DNA of 51,330 nucleotides from an uncultured Chromatiales bacterium (GTDB lineage Bacteria; Pseudomonadota; Gammaproteobacteria; SZUA-140), in the NCBI GenBank assembly GCA_964546765.1, contig CAZJKV010000003.1, forward strand, positions 1 to 51,330. The letters run 5' to 3'. Positions 12,361 through 16,127 of the stretch are shown piece after piece (position 1 is the first letter of the stretch; every line of letters starts with the position of its first letter). Both the position numbers and the translations under genes were made by a program. Under the pieces are notes generated by a model that was not told the DNA's origin, did not search any database, and saw only the letters and a list, made by a program, of their open reading frames with translations.

Positions 12361-12536
12361 TTGATGCCTTTCCTGTCCATATACGGACACCGTCAACTTG
12401 CTTTTTCTTCAATAACCACCGGTACTTGTCAGTTATTTCCGGGCCGGATTCGCTTGACCCTGCCAGCCTGCTTGGCCATAATCCGCAGGGTTGTAAGTCC
12501 CGGTCAATTCAGGGGCATATCCCGGGTAAGGAGAAG

Positions 12537-12866
12537 ATGATGAAAGTACAATTTGTAGGACTGGCGGCCGGCGCTGCCTTGATGCTCGGCGCAGGACAGG
12601 CCACTGCAGACCTCGACCTGGCCAGGTCCTCCGGCTGCATGGCCTGCCATGCGATCGATACCAAGGTCGTCGGACCCTCGTGGAAGGATGTCAACGCGCG
12701 TTATGCCGGCGAGGCGGGGGCGAGTGAAATCCTGTTCGAGAAGATCAAGATGGGCGGTCGCGGCAACTGGACCGACGTCACCGGCGGCGTGCCGATGCCG
12801 CCCTATTCCCCCCGCGTGTCGGATGAGGACATCACGAAGCTCGTCGATTTCGTGCTGAACATGTGA
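12537..12866 (+). CDS. Periplasmic monoheme class I cytochrome c (c551/c552-like)
   Basis: Signal peptide, CMACH, VGPSW and a distal Met in VPMPP. AAGGAG RBS. Confidence 0.92.
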   Translation: MMKVQFVGLAAGAALMLGAGQATADLDLARSSGCMACHAIDTKVVGPSWKDVNARYAGEAGASEILFEKIKMGGRGNWTDVTGGVPMPPYSPRVSDEDITKLVDFVLNM

Positions 12867-12878
12867 TTATCGGGATCA

Positions 12879-12923
12879 GCGGGAATGAGAAAGCCGGCCT
12901 CGCGCCGGCTTTTTCATTCCCGC
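12879..12923. terminator. Bidirectional hairpin between cytochrome c and regA
   Basis: GCGGGAATGAGAAAGCCGGC-CTCGC-GCCGGCTTTTTCATTCCCGC, overlapping the regA stop codon. Confidence 0.75.
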
Positions 12924-13441
12924 GCCGGGCGTTTCTGCAGCTTGCGCTGCAGCGTGCGGCGATGCATACCGAGGCGGCGCGCGGTCATCGAGATATTGCC
13001 GTCGCACTCCAGCAGGACCTTCTGGATATGCTCCCATTCGAGCCGGCTGACCGACATCGGGCGCAAGGCATGCGGTGTCGACACGTCGCCATCATCCCGT
13101 TCGAAGGCGCGAACGATGTCGTCGATCCCGGCCGGCTTGGTCAGATAATGCACCGCGCCGAGCTTGACCGCCTCTACCGCGGTCGCGATGCTCGCATAGC
13201 CGGTCAGCACGACGATCCGGATGTCACGCGACAGCGCGCTCAGATGTTCGACCAGCATCAGTCCGGAGGCATCCGGCAGACAGAGGTCGATCAGCGCAAA
13301 GCGGGGCCGGTGACGGGTCGCGGCCGCAAGTCCGGTGTCGATATCATGGGCGACTTCAACGTCGAAGCCGCGCCTGCGCAGGGCCTGCGCCAGGACTGAA
13401 CAGAACACCTCGTCGTCATCGACCAGCAGCAGCCTTTCCAT
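12914..13441 (-). CDS. regA: RegA/PrrA/RoxR-family response regulator
   Basis: LLLVDDD, LTGYASIATAVEAVKLGA and RLEWEHIQKVL...GNISMTARRLGMHRRTLQRKLQK. Start could be slightly upstream. Confidence 0.93.
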   Translation of the reverse strand: MERLLLVDDDEVFCSVLAQALRRRGFDVEVAHDIDTGLAAATRHRPRFALIDLCLPDASGLMLVEHLSALSRDIRIVVLTGYASIATAVEAVKLGAVHYLTKPAGIDDIVRAFERDDGDVSTPHALRPMSVSRLEWEHIQKVLLECDGNISMTARRLGMHRRTLQRKLQKRPARE

Positions 13442-14759
13442 CGGATCCGCCAGTTGATTTGAGCGACGCCGCGACGGCGCCACGGGCCGCGCGTTCCACC
13501 TTCAGACCAGCGAGCGGCAGTTCGACGCGGGTGCAGGCACCGCCACCCTCGCGATTGAACAGGTGCACCCGCCCTTGCATGCGTTCGATGACCGAATAGG
13601 CGAGATAGAGGCCGAGGCCGAGGCCTTCGTCGGGCCGCTTGGTCGAGAACACGGTCCTGCCTGCCGCGGACAGCGTCGTCGGGGCCAGACCCGCGCCGCG
13701 ATCACAGACCTCGAAGCACAGACGCGCGTCGTCCCACTCGGCATCGACCTCGATGCCTTCGCGTGAAGCGTCGGCGGCGTTGTTCAGGATGCTGGTCAGG
13801 GCGTGGCTGAGTGTCTGTTCGGCGACGACTTCTGGCGCCGGCGCAGGACCTTCGATCCTGACGGTCGCCGTGATGCCGGGACGAAGCTCCTGCCACTGGC
13901 GCAGCAGATCGTCGAGCCAGTCATCGAGGTGACGGCTCCGGCCGGCCGCGGCCTGACTCTGCCCGGCGGACATCGACAGCATCGCCAGGGTTTCCTTGCA
14001 ACGCCGGACCTGCTGCGTCAGTATCCTGGCCCGCGCGGCGAGTTCCGGATCGGTCGTCTTGTATTCCGCCTCGATCTCCCCGGCCAACAGACCGATGGTC
14101 CCGAGCGGTGTGCCGAGTTCATGCGCCGCGCCGGCCGCGAGCGTCCCGAGCGCGACGATCCGTTCGTCGCGCAGGGCATGTTCGCGACTCCGGGACAGCA
14201 GCCGGTCGCGCTCGCGCAGTGCCTGGCCCATGCGTGCGACGAAGGTCGCGATCAGGCCCGCGCTCAGCACGAAACCAGACCACATCCCGAGGATATGAAA
14301 GTCGAATTCCTGTGCATGGGTATGGGTCGCGAACGGCAGCGGGACAAAGATGAACAGCAGCAGCGTGTAGCACACCACGGTCAGCAGCGCGATGATCCAG
14401 GTATAGCGGCCCGGCAGCAGTGCGGCCGAGATCGTCAGCGGCAACAGGAACAACAGGGTCAGCGGATTCGTCGAACCGCCGGTCAGGTAGAGCAGGGCGG
14501 TCAACAGCAGGATGTCTATGACCAGCTGACTGAAGAACACCGGGTCCGGGATCTCGTCCCAGTCCCGCAGCCACCACCAGGTCGCGAGGCTGATCAGGAT
14601 CCACACCGAGATCACGGCCGTGATCGGGATCGCCCGCAACTCGAGCTCGAGTATCGACTGGACGAAATACAGCGCCCCGAGCCAGCCGGCGATCGCAATG
14701 CCCCGCAACAACAGCAGGCGGCGCAGGTTCAGGACGGCTGTAGTCGAAGATGGCGGCAT
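13416..14759 (-). CDS. regB: RegB/PrrB/RoxS-family sensor histidine kinase
   Basis: Six TM segments, GGSTNPL quinone-binding motif, AAHELGTPL H-box, redox Cys in VRRCK and GLGLGL. Confidence 0.93.
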   Translation of the reverse strand: MPPSSTTAVLNLRRLLLLRGIAIAGWLGALYFVQSILELELRAIPITAVISVWILISLATWWWLRDWDEIPDPVFFSQLVIDILLLTALLYLTGGSTNPLTLLFLLPLTISAALLPGRYTWIIALLTVVCYTLLLFIFVPLPFATHTHAQEFDFHILGMWSGFVLSAGLIATFVARMGQALRERDRLLSRSREHALRDERIVALGTLAAGAAHELGTPLGTIGLLAGEIEAEYKTTDPELAARARILTQQVRRCKETLAMLSMSAGQSQAAAGRSRHLDDWLDDLLRQWQELRPGITATVRIEGPAPAPEVVAEQTLSHALTSILNNAADASREGIEVDAEWDDARLCFEVCDRGAGLAPTTLSAAGRTVFSTKRPDEGLGLGLYLAYSVIERMQGRVHLFNREGGGACTRVELPLAGLKVERAARGAVAASLKSTGGSDGKAAAGR

Positions 14760-14818
14760 GTCAGGGGTTCGGTCCGGTGACTCATCCTAACCCGGGACGG
14801 TGCGGGTGCGGCCTGGAC

Positions 14819-14833
14819 GCGACATATCGCCGC
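14819..14833 (-). promoter_or_regulatory. RegA/RegR binding box
   Basis: The minus strand reads GCGGC-GATAT-GTCGC, an exact match to the RegR box GCGGC-N5-GTCGC, about 60 nt upstream of regB. Confidence 0.65.
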
Positions 14834-14880
14834 AGCCCCCGTGGCCGGGAAACACACTGTTTCCGGAATTGGACTAATTC

Positions 14881-14924
14881 AATAATGATAACTATTTGCA
14901 TTTAAGAACGGGGCAGGGTAGACT
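14881..14924 (+). promoter_or_regulatory. Fur box overlapping a sigma70 promoter
   Basis: AATAATGATAACTATTTGCATT resembles the Fur box. -35 TTGCAT (14896-14901), 17 nt spacer, -10 TAGACT (14919-14924). Confidence 0.75.
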
Positions 14925-14930
14925 CAGTAC

Positions 14931-15017
14931 CGAGTCTTAGCACTCACCCCCCCAACACGCGTTCCCCCTCCTCAATAACGCGTGATTCCGGGAGCGCCCT
15001 GCGCTCCCGTTTTTTTT
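14931..15017 (+). ncRNA. Candidate Fur-regulated small RNA (about 87 nt)
   Basis: Lies between the promoter and a + strand intrinsic terminator with no + strand ORF. Internal stem CACGCGTT/AACGCGTG presents the loop CCCCCTCCTCAAT. Confidence 0.65.
14989..15017 (+). terminator. Rho-independent terminator
   Basis: CGGGAGCGC-CCT-GCGCTCCCG followed by T8. Confidence 0.85.
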
Positions 15018-15180
15018 ACAGGACCAGCATCTCGAAGTCCCGCTTTGCGGCGCCGCAATCCGGACAGTGCCAGTTGTCCGGGACATCTTCCCAGCGGGTG
15101 CCCGGGGAGATGCCGTGGTCCGGCAGGCCGGCCGCCTCGTCATAGATGAAGCCGCATATCACGCACATGTATTTGTTCAT
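15016..15180 (-). CDS. Rubredoxin
   Basis: 54 aa, [15 protein letters not shown]...[17 protein letters not shown]. Confidence 0.93.
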
Positions 15181-15314
15181 GGGATCGACAGGATCACGGG
15201 AGCGGAACAAAGCAGCGACGCAGAACATGCGTCCCGCCTCACTACCCTGCAATGTACCATATCGCCGATGCTAGAATGAAGGCTGTCCCGGTCACTGCAA
15301 GCAACGATCACGGC

Positions 15315-16127
15315 ATGAATCCATCCGCCAGCATCCCTGTCGTCCTCGCACTCTCGGGTCTCGACCCGACCGGCGGCGCCGGCATCCAGGCCGACATCGA
15401 GGCGCTCGCGAGCATGGGCTGTCATGCCGCGCCGGTGATCACTGCGCTGACCGTGCAAACCACCCGTGACGCCACGGGGTACGAGGCGGTGGATGCCGGC
15501 CTGCTGCGCCGCCAGCTCGATGCGCTCTTCGGCGACATGGCGGTGGCCGCCTGCAAGATCGGCATGCCCGGCAGTGCCGCGATCGTGCGTGTCGTGCACG
15601 AGGTACTCGGGCGCCATGGCAGGATCCCGGTGATCCTCGACCCGGTCCTGGTCGCCGGCGGCGGCGGCGCGCTCGCCGATGCCGATACCCGCGACGCGAT
15701 GGTCGAACTGCTGCTGCCGCTCGCGACGATCGTGACCCCGAATCACCGCGAGGCACAAGCGCTCGCGCCACAGGCAGACGGTGTCGACGCGCGCGCGCGC
15801 GAACTGACCGCGCGCGGCGCCGAGTATGTGCTCGTTACCGGCGCAGACGATCCCGTCGAGCGGGTCGTCAATCGCCTCTATGACAGCGCCGGTCTGGTCG
15901 AGGCCTTTCAGTGGGAAAGACTGCCCGGCAGCTTCCATGGCTCGGGATGCACACTGGCCGCGGCCATCGCCGGGCTGATCGCGCATGGCGCCGAGCCGCG
16001 CGCGGCTGTGCGTGAGGCGCAAGAGTATACCTGGGAGACGCTGCGGCAGGGCTACCGCATCGGCGCCGGACAGGCGGTGCCGAATCGCCTGTTCTGGGCC
16101 GTCTACGACAAGGGGCTCGTCGTATGA
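15315..16127 (+). CDS. thiD: Hydroxymethylpyrimidine/phosphomethylpyrimidine kinase
   Basis: GLDPTGGAGIQADI, TPNHRE and FHGSGCTLA motifs. Start uncertain. Confidence 0.9.
   Translation: MNPSASIPVVLALSGLDPTGGAGIQADIEALASMGCHAAPVITALTVQTTRDATGYEAVDAGLLRRQLDALFGDMAVAACKIGMPGSAAIVRVVHEVLGRHGRIPVILDPVLVAGGGGALADADTRDAMVELLLPLATIVTPNHREAQALAPQADGVDARARELTARGAEYVLVTGADDPVERVVNRLYDSAGLVEAFQWERLPGSFHGSGCTLAAAIAGLIAHGAEPRAAVREAQEYTWETLRQGYRIGAGQAVPNRLFWAVYDKGLVV

Follow-up and report, generated by a model that had tools for sequence, protein, structure and literature searches.

A candidate Fur-repressed small RNA with an anti-Shine-Dalgarno loop in an uncultured Chromatiales lineage

We analyzed a 51,330-nucleotide stretch of DNA (hereafter, the window) from an uncultured Chromatiales bacterium (GenBank assembly GCA_964546765.1, contig CAZJKV010000003.1, positions 1 to 51,330 of the forward strand) and found, on its plus strand at positions 14881-15017, a compact unit that is very probably a real small RNA (sRNA) gene. 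Our favored reading is that this unit encodes a trans-acting sRNA that Fur represses and whose pairing partners are Shine-Dalgarno sequences, a statement to which we assign, taken as a whole, a probability of about 0.5. Control of the unit by Fur, considered on its own, is rather likely.

In the mechanism that we propose, Fur-Fe2+ would bind, in the presence of iron, to a 7-1-7-type operator placed over the -35 hexamer and thereby block RNA polymerase, and the promoter would fire when iron is scarce. The resulting RNA would form a hairpin presenting an invariant CCCUCCU(C) motif, followed by an intrinsic terminator, with the U-tail and the RNA chaperone Hfq stabilizing the molecule. Its C-rich loop, joined in the window genome by a C7 tract, would pair with G-rich, GAGGAGGG-like ribosome-binding sites, which would stop translation initiation and probably trigger decay of the bound messenger RNA (mRNA).

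A compact plus-strand unit

The unit lies between two minus-strand genes and contains no open reading frame (ORF), as a sequence-only reading of this DNA had reported. Every element named in that reading was found where it had been placed, and its description was therefore exact. A Fur-box-like operator, AATAATGATAACTATTTGC (14881-14899), overlaps the -35-like hexamer TTGCAT (14896-14901), and it matches the classical Fur 19-mer at 14 of 19 positions. Its 7-1-7 core, TGATAAC-T-ATTTGCA (14886-14900), agrees with the corresponding consensus at 11 of 14 positions, leaving 3 mismatches. The dyad center of the box coincides with the center of the 7-1-7 arrangement. A 17-nt spacer separates the -35 from the -10-like hexamer TAGACT (14919-14924), and promoter geometry predicts a transcription start 5-9 nt past the -10, at 14929-14933.

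The predicted RNA begins with a mini-hairpin of 4 bp in the minimum-free-energy fold (GAGU/ACUC, 14932-14945), followed by a single-stranded C7 tract (14947-14953) that forms a second C-rich region. Stem-loop 1 (14956-14984) has an 8-bp stem, CACGCGUU/AACGCGUG, in which positions 14956-14963 pair with 14977-14984. It is followed by an intrinsic terminator hairpin (14989-15009) with 9 pairs, 8 of them G-C, and a loop of 3 nt, and by a U8 tract (15010-15017). A terminator scan also calls this hairpin on the plus strand. The loop that stem-loop 1 presents, CCCCCUCCUCAAU (14964-14976), is unpaired in both the minimum-free-energy and the consensus folds. Its core, CCCUCCUC, is complementary to GAGGAGGG.

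We compared the fold of the RNA with that of shuffled sequences. The segment 14926-15018 folds at -31.1 kcal/mol, as against -14.4 +/- 2.6 kcal/mol for 200 shuffles (z = -6.5), none of which (0/200) folds as well. The unit is present in a single copy in the window genome, and its RNA is predicted to be ~85-89 nt long there and ~60 nt in those relatives that carry the short form described below.

Conservation and distribution

A covariance model built on the hairpin and the terminator returned one strong match (55.6-86.9 bits) per genome in all 12 genomes of two genera, here termed g1, which is the genus of the window (8 of 8 genomes, the window's own included), and g2 (4 of 4). No true member was detected by this model in 24 genomes from nine other genera of the family, which represents the whole order as sampled, nor in 150 further genomes across the class, where two weak matches were obtained and neither is a member. 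Weak matches in the family and the class (E values of 1e-4 to 1e-2) were rejected as plain terminators lacking the promoter block. With the window genome included, BLAST located the unit in 8 of 61 related genomes. Its alignment to one diverged relative is split into two blocks, query positions 2-42 with the operator and the -35 and 83-148 with the hairpin and the terminator, and the 5' segment between these blocks is replaced.

Metagenomes were also scanned, and among five stretches recovered we found three members (76.3, 67.2 and 61.9 bits) and two ordinary terminators. One metagenome contig, L351, shows the same box, a TATAAT -10 and a convergent, adjacent rubredoxin gene. Loose pattern scans of species genomes gave, among the matches listed, one true locus in 120 stretches and six model-positive loci in 119; the bit scores of these six equal those of genomes already found, so that no species was added. 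The restriction to two genera holds within the genomes searched, and the count from the species collection is to be read as "at least." The exact g2-type pattern occurs in two public records, and all carriers in public records are metagenome-assembled genomes (MAGs) assigned to Chromatiales or Gammaproteobacteria. The unit is lineage-restricted, beyond what chance would produce.

One of the weak class-level matches is not a family member but a distinct sRNA-like unit, at L197:1440-1570 in G145, a genome from another family of the class. It has a sigma-54-type promoter TGGCAC-N5-TTGCA, then a hairpin, GGCCGG...CCGGCC, whose loop is C-rich (UUCCUUCCCCCCCUGUGUG), and then a terminator with a T-run.

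The 12 promoters share a block, ..AATGA[T/G]AA[T/C]NATTT[G/A]C[A/G]T, which a -10 of the form TAnnnT follows at a fixed distance, and the spacer sequence between them is free to vary. TTGCAT serves as the -35 in nine promoters, TTACAT in two and TTGCGT in one, and relatives carry TACACT, TATACT, TATGAT or TATCAT as the -10 at the same spacing. The operator is conserved beyond the core promoter hexamers, and it occupies the same place in 12/12. By a hand count, the 12 boxes have 2-3 mismatches in the 14 positions of the 7-1-7 core, those of relatives with TGATAAT having 2. A Fur box over the -35 is in the classical repressing position.

The transcribed 5' part exists in three versions. Four g1 genomes, the window's among them, have the long form, to which the mini-hairpin and the C7 tract are limited; the short form, which starts just before the stem, is found in four g1 genomes; and g2 has a different hairpin. 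No start codon or ORF is common to the three versions. Downstream of this variable part, the terminator hairpin is kept in all 12 genomes, as is the loop motif CCCUCCU, in line with the anti-Shine-Dalgarno loop that had been proposed from the window. The full CCCUCCUC is present in 11 of the 12, and the remaining genome (G006) reads CCCUCCUU. Across the alignment 95.3% of cells pair, and RNAalifold independently predicts the same two hairpins.

The genome also encodes the proteins on which the proposed mechanism would depend. Its Fur, encoded on contig C66, passes the cut-off of the enterobacterial-type Fur equivalog model (173.2 versus 146 bits), and Hfq is present with a score above the cut-off (103.8 bits).

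Relation to known regulatory RNAs

We searched the unit against Rfam 15 (4227 models), a collection that includes those known iron sRNAs that have been curated. In window positions 14000-16000, at E <=10, the search returned three unrelated weak matches and none over 14881-15017, which agrees with the earlier suggestion of a possibly new family. The loci of five relatives, searched at E <=1, gave four matches, all far below their gathering scores. Three of these fall outside the unit; the remaining one, SpR19, covers it on the opposite strand with 32.5 bits compared with a gathering score of 79. Among the papers that literature searches listed, none describes an RNA of this sort from the lineage. 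In two g2 loci, L137:1228-1321 and L141:1734-1821, the stretch separating the cytochrome c gene from the sRNA promoter matches the Rfam "Pseudomonas rnk leader" model weakly (28.3 and 27.3 bits, respectively, against a gathering score of 55), probably by chance or through an unrelated structure.

In its design, the unit resembles sRNA genes of the RyhB/PrrF/NrrF type, with which it shares a short stand-alone gene, a Fur-like box over the promoter, a terminator with a U-tail, and the presence of fur and hfq in the genome. It differs from them in having no sequence or structure match in Rfam 15 and in its seed, which is here a C-rich anti-Shine-Dalgarno loop; moreover, sodB, aconitase and sdhB show no complementarity to the candidate sRNA. 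Fur-controlled sRNAs are reported to reach respiratory cytochromes, namely cytochrome bc1 for NrrF (PMC5586341) and cytochromes for RyhB in Shewanella (PMC5826389). A closer parallel is found in IsrR of Staphylococcus and FsrA of Bacillus, both of which are reported to be repressed by Fur and to act on Shine-Dalgarno sequences through single-stranded motifs rich in C (PMC9410917). IsrR is 174 nt long and contains three C-rich regions and two Fur boxes, and its stems show little covariation (PMC9410917). The likeness extends to one or more conserved boxes of Fur type (here Fur-like) at the promoter, to C-rich motifs both in a loop and beside a stem, to conserved stems of low covariation and to a rho-independent terminator. 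C-rich seeds are selective in the AT-rich staphylococci because G-rich stretches are rare there outside Shine-Dalgarno sequences. The present unit, in contrast, comes from another phylum, has no sequence relation to IsrR or FsrA, and resides in a genome of 64% G+C in which such a seed is unselective. We would describe the candidate sRNA as a possible functional analog of IsrR and FsrA and not as a homolog.

RsaE/RoxS-type sRNAs of the Firmicutes are controlled by regulators other than Fur. They are unrelated to the unit in sequence, as judged from its lack of an Rfam match. What they have in common with it is the C-rich motif and the logic of Shine-Dalgarno pairing (PMC4409812). BrrF from Burkholderia is likewise a low-iron sRNA of a high-G+C proteobacterium (PMC7377471); it differs in lacking a Fur box of its own, in being co-expressed with hemP, in having no terminal stem-loop and in pairing mostly outside the Shine-Dalgarno sequence (PMC7377471). 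The candidate sRNA falls in none of the curated families and is probably a new example of a familiar kind of regulatory RNA, and it opens no new category of regulation. Should it prove to be expressed and Fur-controlled, it would represent an iron-responsive sRNA that evolved independently, in a lineage for which metagenomes are the only source, and a Gram-negative, high-G+C counterpart of a C-rich-seed design so far tied to the Firmicutes (IsrR, FsrA). In that event it would also provide a compact covariance model with which such genes could be annotated in MAGs.

Weighing the favored reading

Several results weigh against the favored reading, and they concern the RNA gene, its regulator and its targets. 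Regarding the gene, the candidate promoter has a weak -35. Its TTGCAT agrees with TTGACA in just 3 of 6 letters, and a sigma-70 scan of positions 14300-15600 for this reason called no promoter at the unit. The stems, in addition, hardly vary. Among the 12 genomes, 6 of 7 pairs in stem 1 and 6 of 9 in the terminator (12 of 16 in all) never change, double changes are found at only 3 pairs, and the covariation score of 0.085, compared with 0.062 in shuffles, is reached by 9 of 500 of these. The sequence-only reading had named covariation analysis in relatives as a check of its proposal. The outcome is mixed, with the two hairpins conserved and the covariation signal weak (in RNAalifold, the covariation term is only -0.26). 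Because of this weak signal, the fold rests on energy and conservation and not on covariation.

A weak promoter and stems that are invariant instead of covarying, as DNA sites would be, could also be expected if no stable RNA were made and if the conserved blocks were DNA-level elements, namely an operator/promoter piece of the divergent or upstream gene combined with a terminator region shared with rubredoxin. We regard this as improbable. The U8 tract is on the wrong strand to serve rubredoxin, as had been pointed out from the window alone, and the terminator scan places a U-tract solely on the plus strand. From one genus to the other the upstream gene changes, yet the promoter-like block and the 17-nt spacing to the -10 are kept. 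Finally, a promoter, a hairpin and a terminator whose order and strand are those of a transcription unit in 12/12 genomes would be hard to explain otherwise.

As to the regulator, consensus scans do not single out the operator. Its 14/19 is the top Fur score in the genome, where no site reaches 15/19, and this score is common to dozens of sites, many of them coding. Sites with up to 3 mismatches to the 15-mer number 44, compared with 7.4 expected from composition. Beside 12 of the higher-scoring among 77 intergenic consensus-like sites we annotated 14 proteins, with no iron genes among them; glnA, FBPase, murJ, S20 and DAHP synthase are examples. The upstream regions of five TonB receptors have no site of at least 13/19 in the Fur-scan lists. 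Overall, these consensus scans outlined no Fur regulon in the genome.

An alternative is that the unit specifies a trans-acting sRNA whose A+T-rich block is instead the operator of an Irr/PerR-like, Zur-like or unrelated protein, or is UP-element-like, in which case the signal would be oxidative or redox stress, zinc or growth phase and not iron. This alternative draws on the consensus match of only 14/19, the right half of which is dictated by the -35, and on the missing regulon. It is further consistent with the presence of two additional Fur-family genes (three in all), which are closest to Irr/PerR and Zur models, both below cut-offs, and with the redox character of the neighboring genes (rubredoxin, RegB/RegA, cytochrome c). 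A second conserved palindrome, GGAAACA-N3-TGTTTCC, located 17 nt upstream of the box in most g1 genomes, may point the same way. On the other hand, the left half of the box is a perfect Fur half-site in 8 of 12 promoters and in the canonical repressing position. The four g2 boxes carry TGAGAAT, one mismatch off, with the G of the Pseudomonas-type variant of the half-site, and a plain UP element is made less likely by the G residues that are conserved.

The same half-site precedes a siderophore-type receptor gene in three genomes. The promoter of this one siderophore/FecA-like TonB receptor, an assignment that is far below the model cut-offs, reads AAATGA[G/T]AAT...TCGTATT[T/C]G[C/T]ATTGACA and is conserved in the three. 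It has the left half-site AATGA[GT]AAT and the ATTTGCATT block in common with the sRNA promoter, the receptor version being 6 nt longer. We judge an operator for a protein other than Fur, or an UP-element-like sequence, unlikely.

In the window, the palindrome is perfect (GGAAACA-CAC-TGTTTCC, 14848-14864) and separates the regB start from the sRNA promoter. Metagenome contig L351 and 7 of 8 g1 genomes retain it, in part as GGAAACAAnCTTTTTCC, and it is absent from G005 and from g2. A further regulator, of regBA or of the sRNA, may use it as an operator. No clear FeoB was identified in the genome, where the matches are generic GTPases. The only clear ferritin/bacterioferritin-family match in the genome (contig C16:19541-19954) contains an in-frame TAA within the matched range. 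This could mean that two genes lie side by side, that the gene is broken or that the assembly is in error.

For the Fur-repressed, trans-acting sRNA that we favor, targets were sought by k-mer, by duplex energy at all candidate starts and then among 1846 genes with controls; these genes and their start codons were crudely called, and the ferritin-like genes, rubredoxin and the small cytochrome c are missing from the list. The GAGGAGGG motif occurs 66 times in the genome, compared with 153 occurrences expected from composition. It precedes a candidate start 19 times, and ~6-8 of these are plausible translation-initiation sites, found at htpG, recQ, a Band-7 protein, a CBS protein, a small cytochrome c and one unknown. 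Among the 1846 genes, the top duplex rank (-22.0 kcal/mol) belongs to a FixO-like mono-heme subunit in a haem-copper oxidase cluster, and the COX1-like subunit beside it ranks 226.

Proteins with the CXXCH motif of heme c are found 1, 2 and 5 times in the top 20, 40 and 80, respectively, compared with means of 0.9, 1.9 and 3.3 (maxima of 2, 3 and 6) for shuffled seeds and with 2, 3 and 4 for a generic anti-Shine-Dalgarno seed. Proteins with narrow iron-sulfur (Fe-S) motifs are found 0 times in these top 20, 40 and 80. The genes for sodB, two aconitases and sdhB rank 1337, 1120 and 1511, and 874, respectively. The iron-sparing role that had been suggested for the RNA is thus not borne out, heme c and Fe-S motif proteins not being enriched among predicted targets, and iron sparing in the RyhB sense appears doubtful to us. 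Given the crude gene calls and start codons, this target result constitutes weak negative evidence. Among 20 candidates picked by hand, 4 had seemed to be c-type cytochromes, an initial impression that the systematic ranking did not sustain.

The leader of the FixO-like gene is G-rich in five genomes. Its pairing with the loop of the respective genome is equaled or beaten by 8, 80, 34, 59 and 47 of 200 shuffled loops, and in 4 of 5 genomes it is thus no better than that of shuffled C-rich loops. The FixO-like haem-copper oxidase operon is the top-ranked candidate target by predicted duplex energy, and not significantly so. A C-rich seed is intrinsically unselective in a genome of 64% G+C, and prediction can therefore neither name nor exclude targets.

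The cluster itself (contig C17:16389-20102, minus strand) comprises the COX1-family subunit, the FixO-like mono-heme subunit and two unannotated membrane proteins. Each of these genes follows an unusually G-rich ribosome-binding region, for example GGGGAGGGGAG, GGGGGGAGGAG and AGGGGGAAC.

The lack of a specific target signal would also fit an RNA that binds protein through its stem and C-rich loop, or a sponge whose loop titrates G-rich RNA, and the stem sequence is indeed more invariant than pairing alone demands. No bacterial RNA-binding protein is known to us that prefers C-rich loops, and we consider such a role very improbable.

Rubredoxin and other neighboring genes

The favored Fur-repressed sRNA has an invariant neighbor. 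A rubredoxin gene is encoded on the minus strand at 15019-15180, with its stop codon (15016-15018) abutting the U-tract; it scores 83.4 bits with the NCBIfam rubredoxin model, the cut-off of which is 90. This gene is convergent with and adjacent to the unit in 12/12 genomes, at a gap of about -1 to 98 nt. Upstream of the unit, regB is found in 8/8 g1 genomes and a cytochrome c gene in 4/4 g2 genomes. In the window, the divergent upstream gene encodes a RegB/ActS-like histidine kinase (13416-14759, minus strand; 262.6 bits, below the equivalog cut-off), and it is followed by a gene for a RegA/ActR-like regulator (12914-13483, minus strand; 196.9 bits, also below the equivalog cut-off). The sequence-only reading overlooked the invariant convergent pairing of the unit with rubredoxin, and it also overlooked that nothing resembling a terminator for rubredoxin is present within the scanned stretch 14300-15600.

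These arrangements raise the possibility of an action in cis, in which rubredoxin mRNA would read through into a 3' extension, reaching regB-regA in g1, and would pair with the sRNA or collide with transcription of its gene. The outcome, once the promoter is de-repressed, would be less rubredoxin, an iron protein, and in g1 also less of the redox two-component system. Rubredoxin has remained convergent and adjacent across two genera despite a changing upstream neighbor, and it is so placed also in L351. No minus-strand terminator-like site is present downstream of it (14300-15016), the U-tract of the hairpin lying solely on the plus strand. The minus strand carries rubredoxin as well as regB and regA. 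If produced by read-through, the 3' extension of rubredoxin would be perfectly complementary to the sRNA. Invariant pairing and the lack of a minus-strand terminator-like site in the stretch scanned thus make cis-antisense action or collision a serious rival to, or an added function of, the trans-acting sRNA. Against it, the annotated genes do not overlap (by the gap given above), read-through of rubredoxin is an assumption, and synteny can last among close relatives without function. Moreover, such a mechanism would require neither an invariant single-stranded CCCUCCUC loop nor an invariant stem sequence. On balance, we consider an action mainly in cis quite unlikely.

We also assessed pairing of the loop with the rubredoxin 5' region and rejected it, since in 12/12 genomes it is no better than that of shuffled loops. 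Any link to rubredoxin would therefore be at its 3' end. The rubredoxin genes show no recognizable Shine-Dalgarno sequence in 12/12 genomes.

A broader reading would join both modes of action in a new family of Fur-repressed riboregulators, whose loop mimics the 16S anti-Shine-Dalgarno sequence, which act, under iron shortage, in cis on the rubredoxin/regBA 3' extension as well as in trans on G-rich ribosome-binding sites such as those of the haem-copper oxidase operon, and which evolved independently of RyhB, PrrF and IsrR. We view this as speculative and rather unlikely. Were this dual reading true, the unit would constitute a compact iron-sparing switch. The strict pairing with rubredoxin makes the unit a simple and testable case in which an sRNA of the trans type may in addition affect the gene converging on it.

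Further features were observed around these genes. In most g1 genomes, the motif [C/T]TACA[T/G]TGCA is located ~40-55 nt upstream of the rubredoxin start, and the rubredoxin leader of the window contains a minus-strand hairpin at 15233-15217. A small cytochrome c with a GC[M/T]ACHAID motif is encoded at window positions 12534-12866, and its homologs in the four g2 genomes are 62-64% identical. Only regB was seen upstream of the unit in the other g1 genomes. The cytochrome c gene is directly before the sRNA in g2, and in the window regA-regB lie between them, as if inserted.

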